IMG/VR virus record: IMGVR_UViG_3300042446_001683
DNA length: 64,000 bases
Direction: 5' to 3' (one strand)
From: a virus
Position numbers and translations under genes: made by a program. Each line of letters starts with the position of its first letter. Position 1 is the stretch's first letter. Below are positions 10,283 through 48,244 of the stretch, piece after piece. The notes beneath the pieces are model-generated. The model saw nothing but the letters and a program-made list of their open reading frames with translations, searched no databases and was not told where the DNA came from.

Positions 10283-10354
10283 GCTTCTTAAGCATAAAAG
10301 GTGATGCACCTGATTTGTACTCAGGATAAGTGGGTTCGATTCCTACAAGAAGCT
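10283..10354 (+). tRNA. trnT: tRNA-Thr(TGT)
   Basis: GCTTCTT/AAGAAGC acceptor, GCAT/ATGC D-stem, CCTGA-TTTGTAC-TCAGG anticodon arm, GTGGG-TTCGATT-CCTAC T-arm. Confidence 0.85.
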
Positions 10355-10358
10355 CTAC

Positions 10359-10504: not shown

Positions 10505-10578
10505 GCGCCCTTAGCTCATTCGGTTAGAGCAACTGACTCATAATCAGTAGGTACCTGGTTCGACCCCAGGAGGGCGCA
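10505..10578 (+). tRNA. tRNA with CAT anticodon, probably Ile2 (lysidine-modified) rather than Met
   Basis: GCGCCCT/AGGGCGC acceptor, ACTGA-CTCATAA-TCAGT; body resembles Ile2 tRNAs. Confidence 0.85.
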
Positions 10579-10592
10579 CTAAATTTTTTATT

Positions 10593-32542: not shown

Positions 32543-32595
32543 TATTTATGATAAAATGTTTGGCTTCGCCAAATTTTTTTATTATATTTAGCAAG

Positions 32596-33393
32596 ATGAT
32601 AAAACTAACTGACTTACTAAAAGAAGTACAAAATAAACCAAAAGCCATAATAATGGCTGGAGGAGCATCAGTAGGTAAATCAACAATCCTAAAAACAATT
32701 GATTCTCAATTAAAAGGATTTGAAAACTTAAATGCAGACAAATATGTAGAAGATAAAGACTCACCAATGTTTGGTAATTTATCTGCTGCCTCATCTCAAA
32801 TAAGAAAACAAGATTTACCTAACGCTATAGCAGCTAAACGTAATTTAATTTACGATACCACAGCATCCAATCTATCTACACTTCAACCAACATTAGATAT
32901 GTTAAATGAAGGTGGATATGATGTTATGATGTTGATGGTTTATGCTCATCCTATAGTATCATTTTTAAGAAACTATAAGCGTGAACGTAAAGTACCAGCT
33001 GCTGGTGTTTTAGGTACTTGGGCTAATGTTTATAATTTATTAGATGAATATAAAAATATATTTGGAGACAATTTTATTTTAGTAAATACACCATCAGGCC
33101 CAGAAGAAGAAGCAGAAATTGCTAACTTTGAAAAAGCATATAAAGACGGTACTCTAAAAGAATATTTTGACAGTTTATTATCTACAGGTCAATTTACTTC
33201 ATCATTCAGAAAAGATGATACTGAGTTATCACCTGAAGAAAAAGCTAAACGAGAAAAATCAAGAGAAAAAACAAAACAACAACTTTATCAAAACATTGAT
33301 AAAATAGCTAATACTTACGGGGATATTCAATCTAAATTGAATCCCATAGATAGTAAACAATTACCTACTGTTGTTAATAATTTTATTAAATGA
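32596..33393 (+). CDS. P-loop kinase (zeta-toxin/AAA_33-like) with MIKLTDLLKE leader
   Basis: MAGGASVGKS, NAD, IYDTT, RERKVP; true start at the second ATG. Confidence 0.75.
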   Translation: MIKLTDLLKEVQNKPKAIIMAGGASVGKSTILKTIDSQLKGFENLNADKYVEDKDSPMFGNLSAASSQIRKQDLPNAIAAKRNLIYDTTASNLSTLQPTLDMLNEGGYDVMMLMVYAHPIVSFLRNYKRERKVPAAGVLGTWANVYNLLDEYKNIFGDNFILVNTPSGPEEEAEIANFEKAYKDGTLKEYFDSLLSTGQFTSSFRKDDTELSPEEKAKREKSREKTKQQLYQNIDKIANTYGDIQSKLNPIDSKQLPTVVNNFIK

Positions 33394-35033
33394 GCTCATT
33401 AGTTAAATCACTTATATTACCATTTTTAACTGAGGTTGATTCTTTAGGTGAAGGATTAACTGTAGGTTTATTTGGAGGTGGGTTTCAACCACCAACTAAG
33501 GGTCATCTTGAAGTAGTTAAAAAAGCTATAGAAAAATATAACCCAAACAAATTTATTATATTTGTTGGAACAGGAGGAGGAAGATCAGATATTACTCAAG
33601 ATCAATCATTAGCTATATGGAACATCTATAAAAAGTATCTACCAGATAATGTTGAAATTATACCTTCACCTAACCCAGTATCTTCAATTTATAGATATGC
33701 TAAAGAGCATCCATTTGAGGATATTAAATGGTTTTTAGGATCTAGACAAGGTAATAACCAAGATTTTGAAGATTTTTATAAACGCTCTAAAGCGGTAGAT
33801 ACTCGTGATAATTTAGAAGCAATTAATATTGTCACTGCTAATGATGTTAGTGGTACTAAAGCTAGACAGGTACTAACAGATAAAGAATCATTATTTAACT
33901 ACTTACCAATTGAGTTATCAGATAGTGAAAGAGAAGAAGTATATAGTATACTTAATCCAATGTCTGAAAGTGAAGAAATAACAACTTGGGTTAATGAGGT
34001 TGTACCTGAACCTGAGATTGATGATATTGATGACTATGCTGATAGTGTTTTAAATCCAATTGATATTGACATACCACCTCATTTTATTGATAGAGTTAAT
34101 GATAAACGTAATCGTCCTGGAATTAAAACAGACGAGCTATATGATTTCTTTGATAAACTATCAGATGAAAAAGATGAGTTAGCTAATTTATTAGACCAAG
34201 GAGAAGTAGTAGCAACAGACTCAGATACTGATATTAATATCCCATTAACTAAAGATATTAAAAAAAGTCAATTACGTGATAAAGTAGTAGCGGTAGCTAA
34301 AACTATAATGCGTAAACCTAATTTTCAAACTACAAGTACTAAATTAACATTTGAACAGATTCAAGATGACAGTATAGTTTGTGATGATTGTGGTTGGACT
34401 TGGAAGATAAAAGATGGTGGTGATGATTTATTCATATGTCATAAATGTGGACATGATAATACTCCTAAAGAAACAAATAATTTCTTTGAACCAATCCAAG
34501 ACAAACAATTAGATTTAAACATATCATCAGAACCTACTAGAGTAGATTACTATAAAGATTATTATAAGAATTTATCACCATCAGATTTTAAAGTTGACAA
34601 AGATAAAGACAAAATAATAATATCCAATATTAGTAAAAAAGGTTTAGAAAATAATACTGACTTTATAAAAAAATTAGTATCACTAACAAGTTACATGATG
34701 GATCATATTAATATTGAACCATTACCAGATGTTAATTTTGTTGAAGATGATGTTAAGAATGCTGATGATTTCTTTGGTAAAACAGCGTATTATAACCCAA
34801 ATGATAAATCAATCACGTTATACACACTAAAACGTCATCCTAAAGATGTATTGCGCTCTTTTGCACATGAAATGGTACATCATAAACAAAATTTAGAAGG
34901 AAAATTAAATGATATACAAGGTCAAAATATAAATGAAGACGATTATCTAAAAGAATTAGAACGTGAAGCATATGAGTATGGTAATGGTTTATTATTTAGA
35001 GGTTGGGAAAATTCAATAAAGAAAAATGATTAA
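33390..35033 (+). CDS. multidomain protein: HIGH-type nucleotidyltransferase, RNase-like domain, Zn ribbon and HExxH metallopeptidase
   Basis: GGGFQPPTKGH and VSGTKAR; HFIDRVND..KTIMRK; CDDC/CHKC; AHEMVH..EREAY. Confidence 0.7.
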   Translation: MSSLVKSLILPFLTEVDSLGEGLTVGLFGGGFQPPTKGHLEVVKKAIEKYNPNKFIIFVGTGGGRSDITQDQSLAIWNIYKKYLPDNVEIIPSPNPVSSIYRYAKEHPFEDIKWFLGSRQGNNQDFEDFYKRSKAVDTRDNLEAINIVTANDVSGTKARQVLTDKESLFNYLPIELSDSEREEVYSILNPMSESEEITTWVNEVVPEPEIDDIDDYADSVLNPIDIDIPPHFIDRVNDKRNRPGIKTDELYDFFDKLSDEKDELANLLDQGEVVATDSDTDINIPLTKDIKKSQLRDKVVAVAKTIMRKPNFQTTSTKLTFEQIQDDSIVCDDCGWTWKIKDGGDDLFICHKCGHDNTPKETNNFFEPIQDKQLDLNISSEPTRVDYYKDYYKNLSPSDFKVDKDKDKIIISNISKKGLENNTDFIKKLVSLTSYMMDHINIEPLPDVNFVEDDVKNADDFFGKTAYYNPNDKSITLYTLKRHPKDVLRSFAHEMVHHKQNLEGKLNDIQGQNINEDDYLKELEREAYEYGNGLLFRGWENSIKKND

Positions 35034-35526
35034 ATTAAAAGAGTTATTAGAAGAAGTTGAAAACAACAAATATACTATCTATTGTGATTTAGATGGGGTA
35101 TTAGTTGATTTTGAAAAAGGTTATGAAGAAGCAACAGGCAAACCAATGTCTGCCGCAGGTGAAGGTCCTGAGTTTTGGGAACCAATACATAAAATGGGAG
35201 CTTCATTTTGGATCAAATTAAAATGGTTACCTGATGGACAAACATTATGGAATTATATTAAACCATTTAATCCAACATTACTATCAGCACCTTCACAAGA
35301 AGAATCATCTAAAATAGGTAAACGAGTATGGAAGAAAAATAACTTACCTGATGCTAAAATGATTTTAACACCAGCAAGATTCAAACAAAAATACTCAGGG
35401 GAAAATAAAATACTTATTGATGATATGGAAAAAAATATACAACAATGGAGAGATAAAGGTGGAATAGGAATATTACATACATCTACAGCAGATACAATTA
35501 AACAATTAAAAGAACTAGGATTATGA
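35026..35526 (+). CDS. HAD-family 5'(3')-deoxyribonucleotidase-like phosphatase
   Basis: CDLDGVLVDF, LSAP, ILIDD. Confidence 0.8.
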   Translation: MIKLKELLEEVENNKYTIYCDLDGVLVDFEKGYEEATGKPMSAAGEGPEFWEPIHKMGASFWIKLKWLPDGQTLWNYIKPFNPTLLSAPSQEESSKIGKRVWKKNNLPDAKMILTPARFKQKYSGENKILIDDMEKNIQQWRDKGGIGILHTSTADTIKQLKELGL

Positions 35527-35978
35527 AATACAGTTTAGTAAAACTATTAGAAAATGAGGGAGATGAAGCAACATTTTCAATCAATAAACAAACAAATGAT
35601 TTATTGTTAACCCCAATTGGTTCAACTATTGAAAAAGTAAAAGAAGCAATTAAGAATCCTAAGAATTATGAAAAACTATTTGCTAAGATTTCTAAATCAG
35701 CTTTAGAAGATTACTTTGGCCCACAAAATCCAGCCAAAAGAAAATCATTAGAAAAACAAAGAGGAGAAGCATTTCCCACTAAAACGGCTGCTGAAATAAA
35801 TAAATTTAAAGAAAAGTTAGCAAATCCTAATAAATTTAACTTTGAAGTTGAAGGTGAGTCTTTAAGATTCCCTCAATCTAAAAATACACTTACTTTAGTT
35901 CAAATGGAAAATGATTTAAAAGTAATTTTAGATAGTGCTAAAATAAAATGTAATATAGAAAAGGTTCCATCAAAGTAA
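35523..35978 (+). CDS. hypothetical protein with SLVKLLENE leader
   Basis: operon context. Confidence 0.65.
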   Translation: MKYSLVKLLENEGDEATFSINKQTNDLLLTPIGSTIEKVKEAIKNPKNYEKLFAKISKSALEDYFGPQNPAKRKSLEKQRGEAFPTKTAAEINKFKEKLANPNKFNFEVEGESLRFPQSKNTLTLVQMENDLKVILDSAKIKCNIEKVPSK

Positions 35979-35982
35979 TATT

Positions 35983-36552
35983 ATGGCTGAAAATGTTTTG
36001 AAAAAAGAATTTAAGGAGAAAGATGTACAACGTCTTCGTAACCTTATGCAAGGTAAATATGGTGAAAAAGCTACTGTAGGTACTGGTTATACTAAACAAT
36101 ATGAACATCATGAAGAAGGAGATGTATGGGAAGAAGATGATCGTACTTGGACTATTAAAAATGGTATTAAACAAAATATCACTAAATTAGACAAAGCTAA
36201 AGAGTCTCTTCACTTACCATTATTTTGCCCATGTTGTAATGGAATGATGAAACATAGGTATGATAAGCAGTTTTTTATACAGTATAAAAGATGTTTTAAT
36301 TGTCAAATTGAATTTGAAACTGATCTTAAAAAGAAAGGCTTATGGGTAGAGTACGAAAAACTCATAATCAACTCAGATATTGATGGACTTATAAATGAAT
36401 TTAATATTTGGGTTGATGAAGAAATGAATACTAAAAATGAGTCATTTATAACTGAAGCAGGTGATATGGAACGTTGGTCTGGTAATGCTAAACAAAAACT
36501 TCTTGAAAGTAAAGAAGAAACCATTAAGTATCTTGAGAGCTTGAAAAAATAG
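35983..36552 (+). CDS. zinc-finger hypothetical protein
   Basis: CPCC...CFNC. Confidence 0.7.
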   Translation: MAENVLKKEFKEKDVQRLRNLMQGKYGEKATVGTGYTKQYEHHEEGDVWEEDDRTWTIKNGIKQNITKLDKAKESLHLPLFCPCCNGMMKHRYDKQFFIQYKRCFNCQIEFETDLKKKGLWVEYEKLIINSDIDGLINEFNIWVDEEMNTKNESFITEAGDMERWSGNAKQKLLESKEETIKYLESLKK

Positions 36553-36577
36553 CCGATATTTATATATAAAATTAAAC

Positions 36578-36940
36578 ATGGATTTTGTAAAACTAATATC
36601 ATATTTATTCCATTCTCGTACCCAAGCTCACATATTCCATTTACAAACACAGTCATATGCTGAGCATATGGCTTTAAATGTTTACTATGATGGAATTGTA
36701 CCATTAATTGATGGTATTGTAGAAGCATACCAAGGTAAATACGGTATTGTAAAAGGTTACTCTAATTTTAATCTAATGGAGTATAATAATACTCAACAAG
36801 TAGTAGCGTACTTAGACGCATTATGTAAAGCAGTTTATGAAGTATACCAATCAACTGAGGACACTAACATACAAAATTTACTAGATGGAATTACAGATTT
36901 AATTAAATCAACTATCTACAAATTACAAAACTTACGATAA
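36578..36940 (+). CDS. ferritin/Dps-like four-helix protein (DUF5856 type)
   Basis: QAHIFHLQT.SYAEHMAL..YYD...DGIVEAYQG. Confidence 0.75.
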   Translation: MDFVKLISYLFHSRTQAHIFHLQTQSYAEHMALNVYYDGIVPLIDGIVEAYQGKYGIVKGYSNFNLMEYNNTQQVVAYLDALCKAVYEVYQSTEDTNIQNLLDGITDLIKSTIYKLQNLR

Positions 36941-37149
36941 TGGCTTTTAAATATAAATTAACTGAAGACAAATATGCTGGAACACAAGGCATGTTTAAAG
37001 ATCTTTTAGATAAATGGAATGCTGAAGATAAAGAAAAAGAAGCTGAAATAGCTAAACTCCCTCAAAATCTTCAAGATAAGATTAAAGGCATCGCTAAAGA
37101 AGCATTATCTAAAAAGAAATGTTATGAGTGCAAAACCATTAAAAAATAA
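36940..37149 (+). CDS. hypothetical protein
   Basis: TAATG coupling; YKLTE leader. Confidence 0.55.
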   Translation: MAFKYKLTEDKYAGTQGMFKDLLDKWNAEDKEKEAEIAKLPQNLQDKIKGIAKEALSKKKCYECKTIKK

Positions 37150-37169
37150 CATATTTATAATAAAATACA

Positions 37170-37532
37170 ATGAGTACTAAATTAAAATCATTAATACAAC
37201 AAATCATCAAAGAGGAAGTTGCTTTATTTGAAAAGAAAAAGAAAAAAGACGAATTACCTCCTCTAGATGTTGATGTTGATGTTGACGCTGAAGTAGCACC
37301 CGCTGAAGAAGCACCTATAGATGACTTATCTACTGACCCAAATATAGACATGAATATGGGAGCAGATATGGGTGGTGATTCAATTGAAAAACAAGTTGGC
37401 CAAGGCTTACAAACAGCATTAGACGCTGCTAAGCAACTACCAGACGGAGAAAATAAAGATAAATTAGTACGTCAAATTGGAAACACCGCTTTATTCTTTT
37501 TGAAAACACAAATCACTAAAGATCAAGCATAA
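37170..37532 (+). CDS. hypothetical late protein with LKSLIQQIIKEE leader
   Basis: late promoter at 37152. Confidence 0.7.
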   Translation: MSTKLKSLIQQIIKEEVALFEKKKKKDELPPLDVDVDVDAEVAPAEEAPIDDLSTDPNIDMNMGADMGGDSIEKQVGQGLQTALDAAKQLPDGENKDKLVRQIGNTALFFLKTQITKDQA

Positions 37533-37555
37533 TATAAACCAAACAAATAAAATCT

Positions 37556-37729
37556 ATGAACAGTCAAGAGTTATTAGAAAGAATGCAAGAGTTATTCGAG
37601 TTATTAGTAGCAGAACACTCAAAACCAGCAAAAGCAGCACATGGACGTGCTCGCAAAACAGCAGGTGAGATTAAGAAGGTAATTGCGGAATACCGTAAAG
37701 CTTCTACTGCTGAAGACAAAGCGAAATAA
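37556..37729 (+). CDS. Hc1 histone-H1-like protein (57 aa, not in ORF track)
   Basis: KAAHGRARKTAGEIKKVIAEYRKAS matches the Hc1 KAAxxRARK...EFRKAS pattern. Confidence 0.75.
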   Translation: MNSQELLERMQELFELLVAEHSKPAKAAHGRARKTAGEIKKVIAEYRKASTAEDKAK

Positions 37730-37749
37730 GAATTGTAAATTTGAGTTAT

Positions 37750-37775
37750 AGGGGAGCAATGCTCCCCTTAACTTT
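37750..37775 (+). terminator. probable terminator
   Basis: AGGGGAGC-AAT-GCTCCCCT. Confidence 0.6.
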
Positions 37776-37788
37776 AAAATAAATAGAT

Positions 37789-38457
37789 ATGCCATACAAA
37801 TTAAAAGGCAAATGTGTTTATAATAAAGAGACAGGTAAGAAGAAAGGATGTTCTTCATCTGTTAAAAAAGCTAAGGCTTATATGAGAGCTCTATATGCTT
37901 CTGAACCTATTAATGAGGGATTATCAGACGCAGTCTTAGACAGAGCAAAAGATGTATACTCAGCTATGAAAGCTGATGATAAAGCAATAATGAATGCTGT
38001 TGCTAAACATGGTAATAGCGCAGAAAATATATTGTGGGGTCGCGCAATCAACACAGCTAAAAAACAAGTACAGACTATGAGTGATACTAAATTAAAAGAA
38101 GTAATTAAAAAAGCATTATCTACACCTCCAGTAAGTGAGAAAAAAAGTAAAGAATTTCCTGACTTAACAGGTGATGGTAAAGTAACTAAAGCTGATATAT
38201 TAAAAGGACGTGGGGTAGATCTTAAAGAAGAAGTTGATTATGAAGGAGAAATGGCTAAATCTGAATTATATCGCTTAGTTAAAAACTCTCAAGAGTTAAT
38301 GCAAATGTTAGATGACGATACTCAATTAGAAGCATGGGTACAAAGTAAGATCACTAAAGCAGCTGACTATATAGCATCAGTTAGCCAATATTTAGGATTT
38401 CAAGCAGCTAACAAGCCAGAAATAGACGAAAGAACAGAATACACTTTAGATAAATAA
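37789..38457 (+). CDS. mosaic head-associated protein (small domains incl. EF-hand-like DLTGDGKVTKAD)
   Basis: segments separated by INE, VSE and LKEE. Confidence 0.65.
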   Translation: MPYKLKGKCVYNKETGKKKGCSSSVKKAKAYMRALYASEPINEGLSDAVLDRAKDVYSAMKADDKAIMNAVAKHGNSAENILWGRAINTAKKQVQTMSDTKLKEVIKKALSTPPVSEKKSKEFPDLTGDGKVTKADILKGRGVDLKEEVDYEGEMAKSELYRLVKNSQELMQMLDDDTQLEAWVQSKITKAADYIASVSQYLGFQAANKPEIDERTEYTLDK

Positions 38458-38458
38458 A

Positions 38459-39016: not shown

Positions 39017-39018
39017 TA

Positions 39019-39345
39019 ATGAAAAAATTAAATAAGTTCCTTAATCATCCTGTATTACCTTGGGTATTAGTAATATTATTAGTGTCATTATTAATTATAA
39101 AAAGTCTTAAACCAGACCCAAGACCAGTAACACCTCCAGTTGATAATCGTATAGATAGTTTAAGTCATATTGTAGATTCATTGAATAAATCATATATTAA
39201 ACTAAAACAAGATTATGATAGTGCTCAATTAAATGTTAAAACAGAAATCCAATATATCCAAATAAAAAATGCTAAAGACATTTCTAATATCCATAATTTT
39301 ACTATTGACCAACGTGATAGCATGTGGTCAACACTTAACCCCTAA
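39019..39345 (+). CDS. TM plus coiled-coil protein, possible inner spanin
   Basis: N-terminal TM, Pro linker, heptads. Confidence 0.5.
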   Translation: MKKLNKFLNHPVLPWVLVILLVSLLIIKSLKPDPRPVTPPVDNRIDSLSHIVDSLNKSYIKLKQDYDSAQLNVKTEIQYIQIKNAKDISNIHNFTIDQRDSMWSTLNP

Positions 39346-39721
39346 ACGTATTGTCTTTAGCGGTGATACTGGTATATTTTTTACTAATAAACAAGAAATT
39401 GAGTTATTAGTAAAATTTAAACAACTTGAGGGTTGTAAACTTGAAATTGAAAAATGGAAAAGATATGCTAATGATGCTGATTTACAAATTGATAGAGAAA
39501 GAGAAGCATATACTTATTTAAATAAAGAGTATAAAAGTTTATTAACTGTATCTAAAGACTTCCAAAAGAAATATAATGATGAATATACTGCTCATGAGAA
39601 TACAAAAATTAAATTAGATAAAGCTGTTAATATTAAAAACAAATGGGTTAAATCAACATTTATAACAGGTGGAGTAGCAGTAATAATTATAGCACCTTTA
39701 GTTTATTTATTAGTTCATTAA
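39269..39721 (+). CDS. exported coiled-coil protein with C-terminal TM, possible spanin
   Basis: signal peptide ending VIAC (lipobox-like); C-terminal TM; overlaps the upstream gene. Confidence 0.5.
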   Translation: MLKTFLISIILLLTNVIACGQHLTPKRIVFSGDTGIFFTNKQEIELLVKFKQLEGCKLEIEKWKRYANDADLQIDREREAYTYLNKEYKSLLTVSKDFQKKYNDEYTAHENTKIKLDKAVNIKNKWVKSTFITGGVAVIIIAPLVYLLVH

Positions 39722-39733
39722 ATATTTATCAAT

Positions 39734-40933
39734 ATGAATATATTTGATAAATTCCTACATAGCGTTTCTTACAAATTCCCTAAGGGTTACCCAGATATGA
39801 GTAACCCTACTGATATTTCATTACTTGAATCTTTAATAAGTGAAGTATTAGGGCAAAGTGTAAGTTTAAATGAAGGTAGTATGAAACAAAATACAGTTAA
39901 AGCAATTCAAACTATTCTTAATTCAGAATTAGGTAAAAAATATAATTTTAAACCTCAAACAGATTGGTCTCGTTTAGGAAATATGGACAAAATATCTCCA
40001 GATCAATTCTTAGAAATTATTAAAAATACTTTTAATAATCCTCAAGTAACTATACTTAAACCTAAAGAAGGAGAAAATCCAAGTTCTAAATATAATATGT
40101 ATTTATTCACTACTTCTGAAGGTCCTGTTAAAATAATATTATCTGGTGGGGCTAATTTAGGTGAAAAATATGAAAGCAACTTCTATGATAAAATTAAATC
40201 ATCAGCTGGTACTTCATTAGAAGATATAACTGACCCTGATTTAAGAGAATTATACAATAAAATAGGCATTGATCCTGAAGATATCACCCCAGAACAAGTA
40301 ATACAAACTGGAAATAAAGGTACTAAACGTCCTATTGATTTTAATGGTCCTGAAAATAAAGGAGAAACAATATCAGATATAACAATTTTACCTGACACTT
40401 ATCTATCTATTAAAAATATAGCAGGTAGTGGATTTTATAATGGAGGAATCATTCCATTTATTGTCTTTGAAGATGGTAAAGTAGTTTATGATCCTAGTAA
40501 ATTTAATATTAAACCTGTTATAGCTCAATTATTTGAAACACTTAATATTGATCCTGAAAAGGTAGCCCAAGGATTAAATGAATATGCTACTAAACAAGGT
40601 GATATGTCTAACACATATGAAAATATAAGTGTAACTAATTCTGAAGATCTTAAAAAATTCATAGCATCAGGATATGATTATGGATACTGGTATGTTCGTG
40701 AAAAAGATAAAGGATTATTTGTTTATGATAATAGAACAGAAGATGATGTCTATAAATTTGTTGGTGATATAAAAAATGTTAGTGTTAAGTATCCTAATAA
40801 AGAGACAAAAACATTAACAGTAAAACTAATAGCAGACAGCCCAGTATTAGGCCCAGTAAATTATCTTATTGAAATACGAGATACTCAAGGTAAAGGAATA
40901 TTACCACTAAGTTTAAAAATAAGAACAACATGA
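39734..40933 (+). CDS. putative PD-(D/E)XK endonuclease with N-terminal leader domain
   Basis: GEKYE...ISDITI...LSIK; leader ends LESLISE..SLNE. Confidence 0.5.
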   Translation: MNIFDKFLHSVSYKFPKGYPDMSNPTDISLLESLISEVLGQSVSLNEGSMKQNTVKAIQTILNSELGKKYNFKPQTDWSRLGNMDKISPDQFLEIIKNTFNNPQVTILKPKEGENPSSKYNMYLFTTSEGPVKIILSGGANLGEKYESNFYDKIKSSAGTSLEDITDPDLRELYNKIGIDPEDITPEQVIQTGNKGTKRPIDFNGPENKGETISDITILPDTYLSIKNIAGSGFYNGGIIPFIVFEDGKVVYDPSKFNIKPVIAQLFETLNIDPEKVAQGLNEYATKQGDMSNTYENISVTNSEDLKKFIASGYDYGYWYVREKDKGLFVYDNRTEDDVYKFVGDIKNVSVKYPNKETKTLTVKLIADSPVLGPVNYLIEIRDTQGKGILPLSLKIRTT

Positions 40934-41574
40934 AACAACTAATAATAGAAGCAATAAAATCAGCTTTACTAGAACAACCTAATGTTGCTCCAACATTAAA
41001 TGAATCTAAACAATATAATTCTCCTATATCTGAGGAAATGAGATACCATATCTCTAATAAAATCCAAATCCATGAAAATATATTTCGTCCTGGTTCTAAA
41101 TCACATATAGAGTTAATTCATGAAGCTCGTATACTATGGAAACAAGGTATTATTGAACTTCAAGCTGAAGATAAAAAATTATTTGAAAATACAGATTTAG
41201 GTCGTTTTGGGATGTTTGAAGGTGAAATAGTACCTTTAGACTTACCAATGATGGAATTAGAAATATTAACAGAAGTAGAATTAGAAGAAGAAAAGAAACA
41301 ACCAGCGTTAGGTAAACCAAAACGTGGTGGTTCTAAAAAATTCTATGTTTATGTTAAAGATCCTAAAACCAAACGTATTAAAAAAGTATCATTTGGTATG
41401 GCAGGTGGTGGACTACGTGCTAAATTAAATAACTCTAAGGCACGCTCAGCATTTTCTAAACGTCATAACTGCCCACAAAAGAAAGATAGAACAAAAGCTA
41501 GTTACTGGTCATGTCGTCTTCCTCGTTACGCAAAGTTATTAGGATTTAAAACAACATTTTCAGGATTCTGGTGA
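40930..41574 (+). CDS. two-domain protein; basic C-terminal domain (VSFG..RHNC..YWSC)
   Basis: DUF5754/DUF6321-like motif pattern. Confidence 0.6.
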   Translation: MKQLIIEAIKSALLEQPNVAPTLNESKQYNSPISEEMRYHISNKIQIHENIFRPGSKSHIELIHEARILWKQGIIELQAEDKKLFENTDLGRFGMFEGEIVPLDLPMMELEILTEVELEEEKKQPALGKPKRGGSKKFYVYVKDPKTKRIKKVSFGMAGGGLRAKLNNSKARSAFSKRHNCPQKKDRTKASYWSCRLPRYAKLLGFKTTFSGFW

Positions 41575-41575
41575 T

Positions 41576-42034
41576 ATGAATATTACACAATTAATAGAAC
41601 AAATTCTTTTAGAAGAAAAGAAAAAAGCAGATCGCTGCAAACGTATTGCTGATCGTCGCTATGATAAACCATCTGCTTATAAGTCAGGTGCTATTGTTAG
41701 ATGTCGTAAAGGTAAAATTTGGAAAGACTTAAAAGAAACAGATGATCCACAATCTGGTAAAGCAGCTCCTTATGGATCAGGATATGCTAGATTAAAAGAA
41801 GTAATTCAAAAAATATTAAATGAAGACGAATCACTTTATAAATGGTTTAAACGTAGAGGTGCTAAAGGTAAAGAAGGTGGATGGGTAGATTGTAATGCAC
41901 CTGATGGAAAAGGTGGATATAAATCTTGTGGTAGAAAAGAAGGCGAAAAACGGGCTAAATACCCATCATGTCGTCCTACACCAGCTGGATGTAAAAAGAA
42001 AGGCAAAGGTAAAACTTGGGGTAAAACAAAATGA
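41576..42034 (+). CDS. basic Cys-rich mosaic protein (PSAY.SG and KWF..WVDC..CGR..YPSCRP)
   Basis: DUF5872-like motifs; internal LKE/LNE linkers. Confidence 0.6.
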   Translation: MNITQLIEQILLEEKKKADRCKRIADRRYDKPSAYKSGAIVRCRKGKIWKDLKETDDPQSGKAAPYGSGYARLKEVIQKILNEDESLYKWFKRRGAKGKEGGWVDCNAPDGKGGYKSCGRKEGEKRAKYPSCRPTPAGCKKKGKGKTWGKTK

Positions 42035-42390
42035 TTAAATTAGTAGATATACTAAATAAAATCCTATTAGAAGGTGATCCTAAAGTAGGTACTGGTAAAA
42101 AACCTAAAGGTTCAGGTCGTCGTTTATACACAGATGAAGATCCAACGGACACAGTACGTATTAAATTTAAAACTGTTCAAGATATTAAAGATACTTTATC
42201 TAAAACATCATTTAAGTCAAAACCACACGCTCGTAAATCCCAAATTATTAATTTAATTCACCAACGTGTTAGAGCGGCTTATGGTAGAGCTAAAGATCCT
42301 GAAGTAAAAAAACGTTTAAAAAATGCTTTAGAATACATCACAACTAAAAAAGAAGCATCTAAAAAGAAAACTAAATCTATAAAAAAATAA
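42031..42390 (+). CDS. basic hypothetical protein with MIKLVDILNKILLE leader
   Basis: GKKPKGSGRRLYTDEDP. Confidence 0.7.
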   Translation: MIKLVDILNKILLEGDPKVGTGKKPKGSGRRLYTDEDPTDTVRIKFKTVQDIKDTLSKTSFKSKPHARKSQIINLIHQRVRAAYGRAKDPEVKKRLKNALEYITTKKEASKKKTKSIKK

Positions 42391-42391
42391 T

Positions 42392-43015: not shown

Positions 43016-43039
43016 CCCATATTTATAATAAATTTTGTA

Positions 43040-46000
43040 ATGAGTAATATTCATAAATTAATAGAACATTTAGTTAACAATTGGTCAAACAATTTATCTG
43101 AGGCATTAGCTCCAAGAGTTAAGCAACAGTTAATGGATAAATTTAAGCAAGAAGCAGATGATTTTAACATTACAATCTCAGATACAAATTTAAGTGACTA
43201 TATTGACTATTTTGATACTCGATTAAAAAATAATCCTAAAGTAACTGAAAAAGATTTAGCTAAGTACCCATTAAAATCATTAATTAAACTTGTATCAGCT
43301 TATAAAGGTTCAAGTAAAGAAGATGATGATGAAGATGTATCAAATATACCAGACGTTGTTTATAATGAAAATGGTCTTATAATTTATAGTGGTCATAATG
43401 AAGAAAACTGTTTAAAGTTTGGTAGAGGTGAGCAATGGTGTATCACTAAAGGATCATTTGGTAATTATCGCTATGATTCAAATAGAAAAAATCCAACATT
43501 TTATTTAGTAAAAGATACTAACTTACCAAATAGTGATAGAAAAAGTTTCTTTGTTGTTGTAGTAGGTAGTGATAATACTTACAAAGTATCAGATAGATCA
43601 AACAATGATGTTGGTGGTAGAGGAACAGAATGGAACAGATGGGAACCATGGTCATTTGTTGAACAAAATTTCCCATCAGTTCAAGGTTTAGAAAGAATAT
43701 TTAGATACATTCCTGTTAGTAAAGTTGAGCTATCAACTCGTCAATATGCTAATCAAGCTATGACTGTTGAAGAATGGGAAGTAGCACCACCAGATTTTAA
43801 AGAACGATATCTTATTATTAGAAAAGGAAAAACACTTTTTTCTGATATATCTAATGAAAAGTTTGTAAAAACTATTCTCCCAGACAATCAAGATATGGCT
43901 ACAGTAGTAGCTAAAAACTATGGGATGATAGATTTAAATACTTTATTACAAGAATTTGATTCTTTCTCTAACCAAAATCAAAAATCAATCATAGCTAACG
44001 CTCGAAGATTTACAAAAGTATCTACAGAAACTTTAAAATCACGTGGTATTCCTTTTTCAGCTAAAAAAGCAGTAGTTAATGGTGGATTACTTGATGTTCC
44101 TAATAGTGAAAGATACTATGTTTCTAATGATGATAAGGCTATAATTAAATTAAAATTTAATGGTGATGATGTATCAATGGGTTTATTTACTGAGAAAGAT
44201 ACATATCCTAATGTTAAAATAAACACTCGTACAAGTAGTATATTAAAAAGTTTACCTAGATTTGATGAGATGCCTTTTGATGCTTTATTAAAGTTAACAA
44301 AAGATAATCTTTTACCTAAAGACACTGTTGATAAAGTAATTGAAAAATCAAAAGAAGAAGACTCTAAATCAGCTATCGTAACAGCTAATACTGATGAAGG
44401 CGAGATAGTGTTAGATACAAATACTTTTAAAGCATATAAACCTGAAAATGGAGAATATACACCAGTACCATTTGAAGATGACTCTGTTCAAAGTATATTA
44501 AAATCAGACACAGTAGGTAGTGGTATTCAAGATGGTATTATAAGGATGATTTCAAAATTTGATAGCATCCCTTCATCAATACCTATGTCAACTATATCCT
44601 CAATAGTGAAACAAACTCCATCAGAAAAAAGAATAGTAAGAAAAGGAGATGATAATTTCATAATAATACCTAGTAGTACAGGGAATGAACTTAATTTATG
44701 GAATACAAATAATCCTTTAGATAGAAGTTCTGTAGCATTTAATTATAGAGAAGATGGAAGATTTGGTAGTGGAAAAATGGCAAATCAAGAAATATGGTCT
44801 GAATATTTTAATTATTTAAGATCTCAAAATTTAGCTTATGATTCTACTCAACTCCTTCCTTTAGCTAGTTCTCAATATTACGCTGGAGCAAAATTCTTAG
44901 CAGCTAATCCTCCTTTAACAGCTGATAACACATACAAACCTGCTCAATATGAAGGAACATGGTATATTATAAATCAAAATAATCCATCTGAGAGTAGAAA
45001 ACTTAGTCCACAAACAGGTAATTTACTTAGAGCTAATCTTACCCCAGCTAAAGTAGCTATAATACTAGGAACAAGACCACCTGCGGGAGCAGTTAGAGGT
45101 ACTAGAACACCTAGAACAGCAACCGCAGCAGCGGCTACACCACCTACAACTACTGGCCAAGTAAATGATGCTGTACGACAAGCAATTGTTGGAGCAGGTT
45201 TAGAACAAGGATTTACTGCCTTACCAGCTCCACTTAGAAGTAGAATATTATCAGGTACATTAGTAGCTAATGACAATGGAGTAGCAGGTCGTAATAGAGC
45301 ATTAGGAGACAGAGGACGAGTTACTAGAATTATATCTGCTGGTCAAAGTAGAATGTATATCATTCGTTTAGCTAGTGGTACTATGATAGGACAAGCATCA
45401 TTCCAACCTGAGGCAAGACACTTTATTATAACCGCTACTAGCGCGTTTAATATGGGTAGAGTAGGTAACTTTATAGATGCTTTAACAGCTCGTAACTTAC
45501 GTGAAACAGAAGACATATTACGAATAGCAATGGGAGCAGCAACACCAGAAGAACTAGAGGAAATTAAATCTAAAGTTAAAACTAAACCTTATAAAGATTT
45601 AGAAGTAACTAATGAACATATTATTCGTGAGTTTGATGAGAATATTGATCCTATTGAATTAAAATGGCATCGTGATAATGAAAACCGAATAGTAGAAATT
45701 GTAGGTAAAACTGATTGGAAAATACAATTAGAAAATCAACTACCAATTTCTATGAATCAACCTATTACAATACCTAAAGGTGAATGGCATCGTGTTATTA
45801 AAGGTAATGGTAAGTTAACTTTAAAGATAATTAAAGAAGAATCTACTCAATACAATATTGAAGGATTATTATTAACTAACACTGAAGATCGTCCACAAAA
45901 AGATATATTATCTGATATACGCTCATTACCTGGTATAACAATTGTATCAAGTAAAGATTATGACTTATCAGGTGAATCATCTGCATTTAGCAATCCTAAC

Positions 46001-46153
46001 TACTATACAATAATTAAAATGAAAGTAGATCCACATCCATATCCTAATGGATTTAAAGATGAAGATTTACAACAATTATTTACTGACATTAGAGCAATTA
46101 AAGGTGTTAGAAATTTCAAATTAAATAAATCTGTAGAGAAAAAAACTGTATAA
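43040..46153 (+). CDS. large multidomain (polyvalent-like) protein with cupin domain
   Basis: GRGEQWCIT domain; WHRD..WHRVIKG cupin; domains bounded by LSE, LRE and IKEE. Confidence 0.65.
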   Translation: MSNIHKLIEHLVNNWSNNLSEALAPRVKQQLMDKFKQEADDFNITISDTNLSDYIDYFDTRLKNNPKVTEKDLAKYPLKSLIKLVSAYKGSSKEDDDEDVSNIPDVVYNENGLIIYSGHNEENCLKFGRGEQWCITKGSFGNYRYDSNRKNPTFYLVKDTNLPNSDRKSFFVVVVGSDNTYKVSDRSNNDVGGRGTEWNRWEPWSFVEQNFPSVQGLERIFRYIPVSKVELSTRQYANQAMTVEEWEVAPPDFKERYLIIRKGKTLFSDISNEKFVKTILPDNQDMATVVAKNYGMIDLNTLLQEFDSFSNQNQKSIIANARRFTKVSTETLKSRGIPFSAKKAVVNGGLLDVPNSERYYVSNDDKAIIKLKFNGDDVSMGLFTEKDTYPNVKINTRTSSILKSLPRFDEMPFDALLKLTKDNLLPKDTVDKVIEKSKEEDSKSAIVTANTDEGEIVLDTNTFKAYKPENGEYTPVPFEDDSVQSILKSDTVGSGIQDGIIRMISKFDSIPSSIPMSTISSIVKQTPSEKRIVRKGDDNFIIIPSSTGNELNLWNTNNPLDRSSVAFNYREDGRFGSGKMANQEIWSEYFNYLRSQNLAYDSTQLLPLASSQYYAGAKFLAANPPLTADNTYKPAQYEGTWYIINQNNPSESRKLSPQTGNLLRANLTPAKVAIILGTRPPAGAVRGTRTPRTATAAAATPPTTTGQVNDAVRQAIVGAGLEQGFTALPAPLRSRILSGTLVANDNGVAGRNRALGDRGRVTRIISAGQSRMYIIRLASGTMIGQASFQPEARHFIITATSAFNMGRVGNFIDALTARNLRETEDILRIAMGAATPEELEEIKSKVKTKPYKDLEVTNEHIIREFDENIDPIELKWHRDNENRIVEIVGKTDWKIQLENQLPISMNQPITIPKGEWHRVIKGNGKLTLKIIKEESTQYNIEGLLLTNTEDRPQKDILSDIRSLPGITIVSSKDYDLSGESSAFSNPNYYTIIKMKVDPHPYPNGFKDEDLQQLFTDIRAIKGVRNFKLNKSVEKKTV

Positions 46154-46154
46154 A

Positions 46155-46757
46155 ATGAACAAAGAATTTTTAAAAATGCAAAAAACGGCTGGTTTAATAA
46201 CTGAAAGCCAATATGCTACTCTAATAGTAGAATCTGAAGAGCAAGAAATAGATCAAGCATTATCATCAGGAGTTAACGCTTTACAAGATTTAAGTTCTTT
46301 AGATGAAATTGAAGAACAACCTCTTGAAGAATCAGTTGTAGGTTTAGTAATTAGTGGATTATTAGCCGCTCCAAAATTAATAGAATGGTTAGGAAAAGGT
46401 ATAAGTATTATAACTAGACCATTTGTTGGTAAAGATGAAAATACTGTAGCCAAAAATATTATTAAATTTGGCCATAAATGGGAAAAATTTTATATAAAAG
46501 CTATAATAGCTGCTATTAAATTTACTAAATTTGGTAAACAATTATGGATGTTACCTGATAATAAAATAGATGAACAAAAATTAGTATCACTAGCTAAAAT
46601 ATTATATGGTGTAATTCTAAGTATAGCAGCTGGTAACGCTTTAAAAACTGTATTAAGTAGTTCTCATCCTATCTTAACAGCTATTGAAAGTGCTTTAGGT
46701 GGGGTTAAAGCGATAGAAATAGCTCAAATAGCATCTAAAGTTAAAGGACAAATTTGA
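46155..46757 (+). CDS. putative head-packaged membrane-type protein
   Basis: FLKMQKTAGLITE leader; hydrophobic helices. Confidence 0.6.
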   Translation: MNKEFLKMQKTAGLITESQYATLIVESEEQEIDQALSSGVNALQDLSSLDEIEEQPLEESVVGLVISGLLAAPKLIEWLGKGISIITRPFVGKDENTVAKNIIKFGHKWEKFYIKAIIAAIKFTKFGKQLWMLPDNKIDEQKLVSLAKILYGVILSIAAGNALKTVLSSSHPILTAIESALGGVKAIEIAQIASKVKGQI

Positions 46758-46792
46758 TAAAAACACACATATTTATAATAAAATAAAACAAA

Positions 46793-48244
46793 ATGGAAAT
46801 TAACAGACTACGTTCAATCATAAGAGAATCAATTAGCAACAATCTTAAAGAGATTGAAGATGTTGCAGAAAACGCAGCAATGGAAGCTAAATTAAATGCT
46901 TACACTGAAGCTATTGATAAAGTAAACAAAAAAATTGAAATGGCTGAAAGCCTTGAAGAAATGCAAGAATTAGTAGATCCTACTAAATTAAATGAACTTA
47001 AAAAACATTTAAAAACTCTTGAAAAATCTAAAGAAAAATTAGAAAAGGTTAAAGCTAAGAAAAACAAAGGTAAAGAAGTAGTAACTGACGAACCAGTTGA
47101 AGAAGCTGAAGTTGAAGAAGGAAGTGCAATGGATAGTATGGATAATGCTATAGTTCCTGAAATGGATTACACAATGGAGGAAGAAGAAGCAATAAATGAA
47201 TCATTCCTTAAAATGCAAAAATTAGCAGGTGTAATTACTGAAGCTCAATACAATCAAAAAAAAAGATTAATTGAGAATCAATTAGAAGAAATATCATTAT
47301 CTGGAGCTTTAAATAAAGTTAAAGATAAGATAGCAAGTTTACCTGCTTTTGATAAACTTATTAATTCTGTTGTGACTAAAATGTCTGAAAAAGACAAAGA
47401 AAACTTTAAAGCTAAATTTAATTTAGCTGAAGCTAAAGGTGCTCCTTCTTTAGAAGATATAATGACTAAAGTAGATGCTATCAACCTAGATAAAGATGCT
47501 AAAACTCCTGAAGATTTAAAAGAAGGAGCTGAAGAAACAGTAGACAAAATAGCATACGAAGTTGTAAGATTAGTTAAAAATTTAACTGGTCTAAACCTAT
47601 TAGCATTAGGTGGTCTTCCATTTGGATTTGTTATTAACTATTTAATAGATATGAGTCCATGGAGTTTCGGAGCATTCGTAGGCCCAGTTATTAGTTTAGT
47701 AGCATCATTAATAATCCATGGTATATCCAGAAAAATTTTAGGAATATCTCCAGATGATGAACTAATTGGAGAATCTGAAGACCAACAAGAAGCACCAACA
47801 CCAGAAAAAATAGCAAAAGATATTGCTAATAATATAGATCAATTAAAATCAAATCCTAAATTAAAAGCTATAGCTGATAAGATAGCTGCTGACCCAAAAG
47901 CAACAGAAGAATTAAATAAAATATTAGCTAAATTTAATATTTCTTTAAATGAAGGAGATATTGATGTTAATCCTCAAGATGTTTATAAAATAGCTTTAGC
48001 TTTTGCTAAAAAAGCAAAAACATTAGGTGAAGAAGAAGGTAATTATGGAGCATTATTTTTAGGTGGTTTATTTGGAGGAGGTGCTTTAGCTCGTTATATA
48101 GCTAGTCTTGGAGATATTATAACCCCAGAAATGAAAATGTTAGGATATTCTCCGTCTCATATGACAGCTGCTGTCCTTGGAGGTTTAGCAGCCGCTGCTT
48201 TATTAATGATAGGCCAGTATATATATGACAATTACAAAAAATAA
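46793..48244 (+). CDS. putative head-packaged multi-segment protein with TM-like helices
   Basis: LRSIIRE leader; FLKMQKLAGVITE; Gly/Ala-rich hydrophobic helices. Confidence 0.6.
   Translation: MEINRLRSIIRESISNNLKEIEDVAENAAMEAKLNAYTEAIDKVNKKIEMAESLEEMQELVDPTKLNELKKHLKTLEKSKEKLEKVKAKKNKGKEVVTDEPVEEAEVEEGSAMDSMDNAIVPEMDYTMEEEEAINESFLKMQKLAGVITEAQYNQKKRLIENQLEEISLSGALNKVKDKIASLPAFDKLINSVVTKMSEKDKENFKAKFNLAEAKGAPSLEDIMTKVDAINLDKDAKTPEDLKEGAEETVDKIAYEVVRLVKNLTGLNLLALGGLPFGFVINYLIDMSPWSFGAFVGPVISLVASLIIHGISRKILGISPDDELIGESEDQQEAPTPEKIAKDIANNIDQLKSNPKLKAIADKIAADPKATEELNKILAKFNISLNEGDIDVNPQDVYKIALAFAKKAKTLGEEEGNYGALFLGGLFGGGALARYIASLGDIITPEMKMLGYSPSHMTAAVLGGLAAAALLMIGQYIYDNYKK

Follow-up and report, generated by a model that had tools for sequence, protein, structure and literature searches.

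N-terminal leaders shared by unrelated proteins of a distant T4-like phage of Flavobacteria probably mark capsid-packed proteins

In phage T4, IPI, IPII, IPIII and Alt carry a capsid-targeting sequence (CTS) that is removed by the prohead protease gp21 (Mullaney & Black 1996, reviewed in PMC9026906 and PMC3012670). Gp21 cuts after L/I-X-E, and residues 1-10 of IPIII are enough for targeting; within the tag, positions 4 and 7 control targeting, positions 8 and 10 processing (PMC9026906). The N-termini in the T4 record read MKTFKEFIKE (IPI), MKTYQEFIAE (IPII/III), MAKINELLRE (gp24) and MELITELFDE (Alt). Polymorphic ip loci of T-even phages were found through their signal sequence, which is conserved (Repoila et al. 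1994, cited in PMC9026906 and PMC12373910), and related phages carry at least 10 Ips (PMC12373910). These loci share with the case described below a variable gene cluster in which the N-terminal signal alone is conserved and genes are swapped between related phages. However, they are confined to close T4 relatives and their characterised members are anti-restriction proteins, whereas here each leader type occurs at 120 loci at least in environmental phages. In the giant phages phiKZ and SPN3US, the prohead protease processes head and ejection proteins (PMC5694885, PMC7411985, PMC9026906). The likeness is that a relative of gp21 acts on many proteins inside the head, cutting after the Glu of a short motif, and that cargo loses N-terminal propeptides; the cut-site logos are displayed apart from T4's (PMC9026906).

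The window, that is the whole 64,000-nucleotide stretch of viral DNA analysed here (IMG/VR record IMGVR_UViG_3300042446_001683), belongs to a distant T4-like lineage of Bacteroidetes (T4-like phage of Flavobacteria). Its leaders are short N-terminal amphipathic helices with the core hydrophobic-x-x-hydrophobic-hydrophobic-x-Glu. The type A leader is MIKLxDLLKE, most commonly in the form M-I-K-L-x-D/E-L/I-L-x-E. Like the T4 CTS, it is a tag of about 10 residues at the extreme N-terminus of otherwise unrelated proteins. All four functional positions of the T4 tag (hydrophobic 4 and 7, Leu or Ile 8, Glu 10) are matched, with Leu 4, 7 and 8 plus Glu 10. The tag ends on L/I-x-E in the presence of a homologous S77 protease and of the same site type in scaffold and major capsid protein (MCP), and T4, too, has one enzyme among its bearers (Alt). 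The differences lie in the sequences (MIKLxDLLKE and MKKSQLxxxIKE as compared to MKT[YF]xEFIxE), in the coexistence of at least two widespread leader types with a mimic of the scaffold tail, and in the bearers, many of which are predicted enzymes or multi-module proteins rather than small basic inhibitors. The enzyme-like and multi-module bearers and candidates are as follows:

7389..7418, + strand: type A leader MIKLTDLLKE of a GNAT-like gene (7389-8351; Acetyltransf_1, E = 8e-5)
32596..32625, + strand: type A leader MIKLTDLLKE of a zeta-toxin/polynucleotide-kinase-like P-loop kinase (gene 32596-33393)
33390..33434, + strand: candidate leader MSSLVKSLILPFLTE of a multi-domain protein of 547 aa, in line with the motif in its hydrophobic version
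35026..35055, + strand: type A leader MIKLKELLEE of a HAD 5'-nucleotidase (gene 35026-35526)
46793..46828, + strand: candidate leader MEINRLRSIIRE of a 483-aa modular protein, with a late box (46769-46777) directly upstream

The first-pass annotation had rightly read MIKLTDLLKE as the start of 7389 and 32596 and MIKLKELLEE as that of 35026; the leaders it reported are present, and their real extent exceeds what it had envisaged. MIKLTDLLKE is the only part common to 7389 and 32596, and the two leader DNAs differ by 3 synonymous changes in 30 nt. Homologues of 7389 with the same leader were found in L028, L079 and L103. In the kinase, the Zeta_toxin match (E = 8e-13) covers a domain from residue 11, and in the AlphaFold model residues 1-10 (pLDDT 52) form a free, low-confidence helix, followed by a kinase fold modelled with confidence, whose closest folds are zeta/PezT and Pnkp kinases. 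An upstream ATG at 32548 was rejected as start of this gene, the true start being 32596. The nucleotidase matches phrog_2643 (E = 6e-25), residue 12 onward being matched from profile position 3. Since the members of the type A kinase alignment were picked by their leader, this alignment is circular for the leader, and the HAD homologue survey, with residues 15-166 as its query, alone is independent. Among 120 HAD homologues, 79 have a MIKL-type leader, two have none, three start similarly to MELARLREEE, and four are inner modules beyond the MELARLREEE-like junction. The orthologue of 35026 in the relative G004 is without leader; that in Flavobacterium phage immuto has MKKVMGNLADLLLEE. The 33390 protein combines a cytidylyltransferase-like domain with a weak M91-like peptidase match, and its G004 orthologue (96497) starts with MSLGKYIAQFLLE. 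Residues 334-479 of 46793 exist in immuto as a separate protein with a leader (103762). Both 33390 and 43040 chain several enzyme-like modules in tandem, which related phages keep separate. In this they are similar to the polyvalent proteins of phages and conjugative elements, reportedly described by Iyer, Burroughs, Anand, de Souza and Aravind in 2017; to our knowledge, that description includes neither the leader nor the hydrophobic-x-Glu junction logic.

The remaining bearers and candidates are:

16676..16711, + strand: start MKIDGLKKLIKE, with the motif, of a protein of 121 aa within the baseplate/tail block
35523..35552, + strand: weak candidate leader MKYSLVKLLE, with Glu at position 10, of a basic 151-aa protein
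37170..37217, + strand: candidate leader MSTKLKSLIQQIIKEE of a 120-aa acidic protein, late box 37151-37159 directly upstream
40930..40974, + strand: candidate leader MKQLIIEAIKSALLE of a 214-aa basic protein
41576..41617, + strand: leader MNITQLIEQILLEE of a DUF5872-like basic protein (weak DUF5872 match)
42031..42072, + strand: type A-derived leader MIKLVDILNKILLE of a 119-aa basic protein (pI 10.4)
46155..46205, + strand: second kind of tag, MNKEFLKMQKTAGLITE, a copy of the scaffold C-terminus FARMQRLAGIKK with the end I-T-E
55407..55442, + strand: start MKLSELKKHIEE, then IVEILGE, of a 168-aa gene directly upstream of the large terminase
60308..60361, + strand: helix MSKRDKIKDLVVKRLKEE at the N-terminus of a basic protein of 156 aa

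The leaders can be exchanged at a fixed junction, one mature family having different leaders in different phages. The C-terminal domain of 40930 recurs after MIKLLDILHE (G004 99709) and MIRLQEIVG (immuto 101226), and the mature start KK(K)ADRC..RIA of 41576 also follows MIKLTDILKEVLEE (G004 100547) and ..YIENIIKEILSE (immuto). In 42031, Glu10 is gone and an L-L-E site is present at residues 12-14 instead; its homologues in L025 and L045 have MIKLVDLLKE, a short linker and then DPKVGTGKK. The 46155 tag clusters with those of immuto 111631 and 25470 and of G004 107176 and 64185. Gene 60308 lies between portal and protease, the place of the T4 prohead-core genes 67/68, and has orthologues with a type B leader (immuto MKKSQIVKAVQEVLEE, L187 MKKSQLKQMIKEVLEEE). 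The start of 35523 is off the strict motif defined below, and neither G004 nor immuto yielded an orthologue. The gene at the position of 55407 differs in G004 and immuto, each version beginning with a leader-like helix; 55407, for which no family match was obtained, could encode cargo or the small terminase. The motif of 16676 is kept in a BLAST-supported orthologue (G004 82076) and, at the syntenic place with N-terminal likeness only, in immuto 81481, both behind a late box; 16676 likewise yielded no family match, and its status as cargo is uncertain.

The location of 16676 and its syntenic counterparts in the baseplate block favours another reading, namely that the leader is a protease-removed propeptide keeping harmful enzymes inactive or sequestered, or a docking helix for other late assembly (core-only helpers, tail, baseplate), the mature proteins being neither kept in the head nor delivered. 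The T4 core proteins gp67, gp68 and gp22 have comparable helices, but end up degraded and expelled instead of being injected (PMC9026906), and zeta-like kinase, GNAT and nucleotidase make up a potentially harmful set, zeta-type kinases being bacterial toxins. However, the 10-residue layout is that of the T4 tag sufficient for packaging (PMC9026906), many bearers are small and basic like the T4 internal proteins, and a zymogen role gives no account of one leader on more than 40 unrelated families. We consider this reading unlikely.

The strict motif, [LI]xx[LI][LI]xE, was scored in the first 25 residues of the window's proteins, where it is found in 7389, 16676, 32596, 35026, 37170, 41576, 42031, 46793, 55407 and 55938. 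It occupies 11/2,250 N-terminal positions as compared to 15/18,080 elsewhere (5.9-fold, Fisher p = 5e-5), and shuffling the first 25 residues leaves 0.8 +/- 0.9 genes with a match (maximum 5) instead of 10. N-terminal enrichment is 7.7-fold in the complete relative G004 (13 genes versus ~2 expected) and 7.4-fold in immuto (11 versus 1.5). It is weaker in T4, with 3.5-fold for the strict pattern and 2.7-fold for a broader hydrophobic version, which picks up IPI-III, Alt, gp24 and gp68; known head proteins make up 6 of the 29 T4 N-termini flagged by this version. Staphylococcus phage K shows no N-terminal enrichment (0.75-fold) and that in Cellulophaga phage phi14:2 is not significant, both phages having ~30% GC and no S77 protease. 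The enrichment is confined to the N-terminus and is seen in the window phage, two relatives and T4; gene by gene, the motif alone is a poor predictor. Some copies quoted in the first-pass annotation have to be revised. SLVKLLENE, IKSALLE and LKKHIEE depart from its own pattern, though each has an L-x-E site; 55407 does have a strict N-terminal copy, which is IVEILGE. LESLISE of 39734 begins at residue 31, within a conserved domain, and is no N-terminal copy. The two copies claimed for the scaffold exist, and so do the internal ones in 41576, 60781 and 53287, but the latter occur at about the background rate and are unsupported as marks of cargo.

IMG/VR was scanned with a degenerate DNA pattern encoding MIKLxDLLKE. 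This gave at least 120 loci, almost always at the start of an ORF, as compared to 2 loci for a scrambled control with identical residues and degeneracy. The type A leader heads 44 unrelated protein clusters among the matches listed; the two leader types each give at least 120 loci and, among the matches listed, 44-76 unrelated clusters in environmental phages. Window bearers of the core MIKLxDLLKE are the GNAT-like protein, the zeta/PNK-like kinase, the HAD nucleotidase and a small basic protein. Across 103 non-redundant leaders among the matches listed, synonymous codon variation is about that of the rest of the same genes. As synonymous codons drift, selection acts on the leader peptide, not on the DNA. 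The core leader is N-terminal, real and portable between unrelated proteins, and since it occurs on dozens of unrelated families in uncultured relatives, it is probably a tag for capsid-packed proteins.

The motif might instead be a by-product of AT-rich coding (rich in Lys, Ile, Leu and Glu) and of helical N-termini, with no common function, in line with the background rate of internal copies, the relaxed-pattern matches in T4, most of which are not known head proteins, and single matches such as TerL (55938), where the motif is absent in orthologues and probably due to chance. The shuffling result, the two phages of equal GC content, the scrambled control and the invariant peptide with drifting codons all speak against it. 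For the core set this explanation is refuted; it holds only for individual weak matches and as a general account is extremely improbable.

A link to head maturation is provided by the following features:

61718..62326, + strand: prohead protease of the gp21 family (Peptidase_S77, E = 9e-29)
62527..63588, + strand: scaffold protein with N-terminus MNREMLKEAIAE, C-terminus FARMQRLAGIKK and 21 [LI]xE sites
63620..63799, + strand: predicted MCP propeptide ending in QLVIE (residue 60)

The Peptidase_S77 match bears out the gp21 homologue proposed at 61718, and the leader ends in the L/I-x-E site type of this protease. In giant phages, the first position of the cut motif is taken by a small residue, not Leu/Ile, and we know of no single portable 10-residue leader described for them. 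The [LI]xE density of the scaffold is 5.9% versus 1.4% background, a four-fold excess; T4 gp22, which starts with MLKEQLIAE, has 16 such sites in 269 aa. In alignment, the end of the MCP propeptide coincides with the site at which T4 gp23 is cut (FLTE|AEIGG), and the predicted junctions read QLVTE|AN in G004 and QIVSE|AN in immuto (LVIE/LVTE/IVSE in the clade). S77 is encoded in all eight near-complete leader-bearing genomes tested, 4/4 complete type A genomes and 4/4 type B genomes at least 93% complete; leader-bearing contigs without S77 are 38-67% complete. In type A loci of 1-15 kb, the recurrent neighbours among the matches listed are TerL (27), portal (22), S77 (20) and MCP (13). Leader, S77 protease and head genes go together. 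Portability by itself is no proof of capsid targeting, and the leader could serve as a handle for another dedicated enzyme or chaperone with many clients, in the style of a RiPP maturase and with the capsid uninvolved. However, only the T4-type head and neighbouring conserved genes recur beside leader genes among the matches listed, no radical-SAM or other protein-modifying enzyme does so there, and both the S77 site type at the end of the leader and its match to the T4 tag speak against such a handle, which is very unlikely.

Expression of the leader genes was assessed from these elements:

43019..43027, + strand: example of the late-type box ATATTTATA
7377, 36556, 37151, 46769, 53264, 55381, 57509 and 59431: further late-type boxes
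39722 and 32543: variants of the late-type box
32559..32590, + strand: early promoter of the host type (Bacteroidetes), TTTGGC-N-TATATTTA, preceding the 32596 operon

The box ATATTTATA occurs in 17 copies, all on the + strand and mostly just upstream of gene starts, versus 7.9 expected on both strands. Isolated leader genes in early blocks have their own late-type box in 3/3 phages, such as 7389 with its box at 7377-7385. The 32596 operon follows a host-type promoter (12 such sites versus 0.05 expected) and has a late-like box only further upstream, so that 'late' is not clean there. By nearest promoter, the N-terminal motif is present in 8/50 late-unit versus 2/38 early-unit genes; the difference is not significant (p = 0.18).

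Portability, peptide selection, the T4 layout, the linkage to S77 and head genes, the shared site type in MCP and scaffold and the negative controls indirectly support the capsid address proposed in the first-pass annotation, whose cargo list, however, was too broad. TerL is rejected as cargo, 39019/39269, taken for 'membrane peptides', are a spanin-like pair without leader, and the 'nuclease' 39734 has no family support. Instead of a large and varied arsenal, a realistic count suggests ~8-12 candidate cargo proteins in the window. No virion proteome of immuto phages was found in the literature.

Taken together, we regard the leaders as capsid-targeting propeptides of T4 type, carried by a distant clade, with a probability of about 0.7. 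Docking partner, cleavage, presence in the virion, injection and the roles of the enzymes are what we infer beyond this. The leader helix would dock a freshly synthesised protein in the prohead core as this assembles. Once the shell has closed, the protease encoded at 61718 would cut after the leader Glu, as it would cut scaffold and capsid protein at such sites. The mature protein would then remain within the head, and at least some of these proteins may exit with the DNA at infection, by analogy to T4 IPI-III and Alt.

The first-pass annotation had proposed that many late proteins of this phage share a scaffold-mimicking leader, comparable to the T4 tag removed by the gp21 protease, that loads them into the head for injection with the DNA. 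The leaders it quoted were located at the positions reported, and most of them fit its pattern, [LI]xx[LI][LI]xE (strict motif), with the exception of LKKHIEE, SLVKLLENE and IKSALLE. Among 90 plus-strand ORFs, the density of the strict motif within the first 25 residues exceeded that of all other positions 5.9-fold (p = 5e-5), and ten window genes carried it N-terminally as compared to 0.8 expected, and a maximum of five, when the first 25 residues were shuffled protein by protein. For comparison we used the complete genome G004, a 173-kb IMG/VR genome syntenic with the window, and the genome of Flavobacterium phage vB_FspM_immuto (immuto; host, Flavobacterium sp. LMO8), whose group comprises the closest cultured relatives, the head genes being ~68% identical in nucleotide sequence. 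The same test revealed a 7.7-fold enrichment in G004 and a 7.4-fold enrichment in immuto. In T4, N-terminal enrichment amounted to 3.5-fold with the strict pattern and to 2.7-fold with a broader hydrophobic pattern, which picks up IPI, IPII, IPIII, Alt, gp24 and gp68. Neither Staphylococcus phage K nor Cellulophaga phage phi14:2 showed N-terminal enrichment; each has ~30% GC and no S77 (gp21-family) prohead protease. Thus, the enrichment in the window and its relatives is explained neither by base composition nor by a general tendency of N-termini to form helices. For single genes the predictive power of the motif is weak, as exemplified by a chance match in the large terminase (TerL) and by relaxed matches in T4, which are mostly not known head proteins.

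Leaders resembling MIKLxDLLKE (type A) comprise ~10 residues at the extreme N-terminus, with few in-frame codons upstream (median) and domain profiles that start from residues 11-12. The products of genes 7389 (GNAT-like) and 32596 (kinase), named like all window genes by start coordinate, have MIKLTDLLKE as their sole likeness, and the underlying DNA differs at 3 of 30 bases, all synonymous. A degenerate DNA pattern for M-I-K-L-x-D-L-L-K-E matched at least 120 IMG/VR loci, as compared to two loci for a scrambled peptide of the same residues and codon degeneracy, and nearly all matches among the 120 loci listed coincide with an ORF start. Stripped of the leader, these 120 listed proteins form 44 clusters without detectable similarity between clusters. 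The observation of a shared N-terminal leader was thus confirmed and extends far beyond the window. Each of four complete genomes holds two to four MIKL-type gene starts and none matching a reversed control pattern. Across 103 non-redundant leader copies, synonymous codons vary roughly as in the remainder of the same genes; therefore, selection acts on the peptide and not on DNA or RNA, and this codon test rules out a nucleic acid-level repeat, RNA or DNA, as an explanation of the leader.

A second leader, MKKSQL-x-x-[LI]-I-x-E (type B), is common in immuto; it likewise matched at least 120 IMG/VR loci and heads at least 76 unrelated clusters among the matches listed. The leaders are short and near-invariant, and the immuto phages represent a cultured clade of bearers; a literature search did not find the strings MIKLKDLLKE, MIKLTDLLKE, MKKSQL.. 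or similar ones. A third type, (M)ENFDLKKFLVENKLT..N..LLKE, starts four unrelated immuto proteins (1803, 103762, 117587 and 118588; loci L121 and W02) and is not present in the window. Moreover, the C-terminus of the scaffold (window 63550-63588) ends with ..FARMQRLAGIKK, and the scaffolds of immuto, G003 and G004 have the same C-terminal motif. Several unrelated proteins begin with, or are interrupted by, this same ..[RK]MQ[KR]LAG[IL].. stretch with I-T-E or L-K-E behind it:

Occurrences of the scaffold-tail-like stretch
Window, 46155-46205
Window, inside 46793-48244
immuto, 111631 and 25470
G004, 107176 and 64185

This mimic of the scaffold tail is possibly a second address.

To follow one cargo family, homologues of the HAD nucleotidase 35026 were searched with residues 15-166 only, the leader being excluded from the query, and the best 120 matches were sorted:

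N-terminal arrangement of the best 120 matches to 35026
MIKL-type leader plus short variable linker: 79
Domain right at the start, without leader: 2
Short leader of another kind, MELARLREEE-like: 3
Module inside a longer protein, directly behind the same ..ELARLREEE junction: 4
Long N-terminal fusions of other kinds: 8
Short extensions of other kinds: 7
Truncated at the N-terminus, or domain motif not detected: 17

The G004 orthologue is leaderless, and the immuto orthologue carries MKKVMGNLADLLLEE. A DUF5872-like basic protein starts with MNITQLIEQILLEE in the window, MIKLTDILKEVLEE in G004 and ..YIENIIKEILSE in immuto, the mature start being common to all. Thus, the point at which leaders are acquired, dropped or swapped is a fixed junction ending in hydrophobic-hydrophobic-x-Glu. 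In several longer homologues (P0105-P0109, P0117 and P0118), the HAD nucleotidase is the last module behind a junction ..AYAMELARLREEE, which doubles as a stand-alone N-terminal leader in other 35026 homologues; these longer proteins have a polyprotein-type organisation with leader-like joints. In an AlphaFold model of kinase 32596, the first ten residues form a free helix of low confidence (pLDDT 52), followed by a confidently modelled P-loop fold, which is nearest to zeta/PezT toxins and polynucleotide kinases. A search for homologues of this kinase in cultured phages matched only Pelagibacter phage HTVC008M, the Melnitz phages and Atu_ph07; in Atu_ph07 the kinase domain lies inside a protein of 779 aa. 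The order of P-loop kinase followed by HIGH-motif nucleotidyltransferase (window 32596-35033) is kept in HTVC008M, a distant T4-like pelagiphage (106562-109011; locus L169), where the kinase starts with MIPFILKE and the transferase with MKTLKELLRKK.

All real genes of the window lie on the plus strand, and its right end is a T4-type head module:

Head module of the window
55938, +, large terminase (TerL)
57536, +, portal
59457, 60308 and 60781, +, three small genes
61718, +, prohead protease, Peptidase_S77 (E = 9e-29)
62527, +, scaffold
63620, +, major capsid protein (MCP), start only, at the window end

Gene 60308, whose orthologues bear a type B leader, corresponds in position to T4 core genes 67 and 68, and in genome G001 a MIKL-led gene lies immediately downstream of the protease gene. 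The S77 protease is present in 4/4 complete type A genomes and, among type B genomes of at least 93% completeness, in 4/4 as well; leader-bearing contigs without it are 38-67% complete. Neighbours in the 1-15 kb around type A leaders (120 loci listed) include the large terminase (27), portal (22), S77 protease (20) and capsid protein (13), and the two conserved genes flanking the window's cluster also recur there. These surroundings bear on the alternative that the leader is the tag of some other dedicated modifying enzyme (RiPP-like, radical-SAM type), for which one linked enzyme gene would be expected. However, neither a radical-SAM enzyme nor another candidate modifying enzyme recurs within 1-15 kb of the leaders among the 120 loci listed, where only T4-type head genes and the neighbouring conserved genes do so, and this alternative is therefore disfavoured. 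A DUF5856 Dps/ferritin-like protein without leader is encoded within the window's cargo cluster (36578-36940); in G001 (locus L125), a DUF5856 protein lies two genes past the prohead protease and adjoins a MIKL-led gene.

For T4, the capsid targeting sequence (CTS) is regarded in the literature as the only feature common to the diverse internal proteins of T-even phages and as a means to find them (PMC3012670, PMC12373910). The first ten residues of IPIII suffice for packaging, targeting depends on residues 4 and 7 and processing on residues 8 and 10, with gp21 cleaving after L/I-X-E (PMC9026906); T4 cargo enters the host together with the DNA (PMC12373910).

First ten residues in the T4 record
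IPI: MKTFKEFIKE
IPII and IPIII: MKTYQEFIAE
gp24: MAKINELLRE
Alt: MELITELFDE

MIKLxDLLKE has Leu at positions 4, 7 and 8 and Glu at position 10, and its layout therefore equals that of the T4 CTS position by position. MIKLKELLEE is CTS-like as well (hydrophobic at 4 and 7, Leu/Ile at 8, Glu at 10), and the window's other leaders keep the core with a register shifted by 2-6 residues. As in the T4 system, the tag sits on otherwise dissimilar proteins, a gp21-family S77 protease is encoded alongside, and scaffold and MCP have a cleavage-site type in common, although in the window MCP the first position of the site is Val instead of Leu/Ile. The maturation site of T4 gp23, FLTE/AE (slash, cut or predicted cut), aligns with QLVIE/TS in the window, LVTE/AN in G004 and IVSE/AN in immuto. 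The scaffold contains 21 [LI]xE sites in 353 residues, that is four times the background rate, and its start MNREMLKEAIAE/AK resembles MLKEQLIAE/AQ of T4 gp22. In immuto, leaders are predicted to end with the Glu of MKKSQLRQIIKE, MIKLIDLLTE and ..RMQKLAGIITE, and the MCP to be cut after IVSE. Co-folding of the scaffold with the first 40 residues of the 42031 product scored 0.00, in a run without controls, and speaks as little for binding as against it. No virion proteomes of immuto or other flavobacterial T4-like phages were found in the literature. Most likely, the mechanism is capsid targeting and protease release of the T4 type, in a lineage that is distant and largely uncultured and has leader sequences of its own.

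Regarding expression timing, a promoter-like Bacteroidetes host-type signal, TTTGGC-N-TATATTTA, precedes window genes in 12 copies as compared to 0.05 expected. The box ATATTTATA occurs in 17 copies, on the plus strand only, as compared to 7.9 expected, and lies a few bases ahead of portal and tail genes and of many leader genes; from its likeness to T4 TATAAATA we infer that it is of late type. Such putative late-type boxes precede most leader bearers, and leader genes stranded in early blocks have one of their own (7389 in the window, and three genes each in immuto and G004). Operon 32596-35983 lies behind a host-type promoter, with a late-like box 50 bases further upstream. T4 internal proteins are made both early and late, and the host-type promoter of this operon does not contradict capsid targeting, nor does it support it. 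The split of bearers into early and late by nearest promoter was not significant (p = 0.18). Another upstream motif, TATAAATAAAT, whose core is identical to the T4 late promoter TATAAATA, precedes genes 150, 1909, 9015 and 11332, which have neither an early box nor a ATATTTATA box; it may represent a middle or alternative promoter class. The early block (window 1-8000) has a GC content of 36-40% as compared to 28-32% in the remainder, and several mechanical ORF starts in it lie upstream of the early promoter, the true starts therefore being further in.

Concerning individual cargo, the four type A genes (7389, 32596, 35026 and 42031) are strong candidates, and so are 41576 and, with its scaffold-tail mimic, 46155; 33390, 37170, 40930, 46793 and 60308 are probable cargo. 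The status of 35523, of 16676 in the baseplate block and of 55407 is uncertain, the latter gene being in small-terminase position and not conserved in relatives. Several candidates have basic mature parts (pI 9-10.4), and T4 internal proteins are basic. Other listed items did not stand. The internal copies turned out to be non-cargo or unsupported, orthologues of TerL 55938 are without the motif, and LESLISE of 39734 starts at residue 31, inside an N-terminal domain conserved in relatives. The pair 39019/39269 encodes a spanin-like transmembrane protein and lipoprotein. These genes (39019-39345 and 39269-39721, +) overlap, the first product having an N-terminal transmembrane helix and the second a lipoprotein-type signal ending ..NVIAC, and together they look like an i-spanin/o-spanin lysis pair. 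ORF 10301 was rejected as cargo and is a spurious mechanical ORF, because tRNA genes lie there:

tRNA genes
10283-10355, +, tRNA-Thr (TGT)
10505-10579, +, tRNA-Met (CAT)

Taken together, we propose, at slightly less than even odds (about 0.45), that an N-terminal hydrophobic-x-x-hydrophobic-hydrophobic-x-Glu constitutes a readable, lineage-wide address code, in which near-invariant leaders, at least the two of MIKLxDLLKE and MKKSQLxxxIKE type, would designate far more than 100 unrelated families as cargo that uncultured aquatic T4-like phages package into the head, release by the protease and probably inject. The families so addressed may include kinases, nucleotidases, acetyltransferases and polyprotein modules, and by analogy with T4 a large injected enzyme arsenal is plausible. 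The head-borne proteins of T4 act ahead of any phage gene expression: IPI-III disarm host defences and Alt re-programmes RNA polymerase. The tag could also load foreign proteins into the heads of non-coli phages. If the leaders work as in T4, they would provide a sequence-only list of first-strike proteins, many enzymes among them, for a large and mostly uncultured group of aquatic phages. If the address code holds true, the injected-protein repertoire of a major environmental phage group could be compiled from sequence alone.
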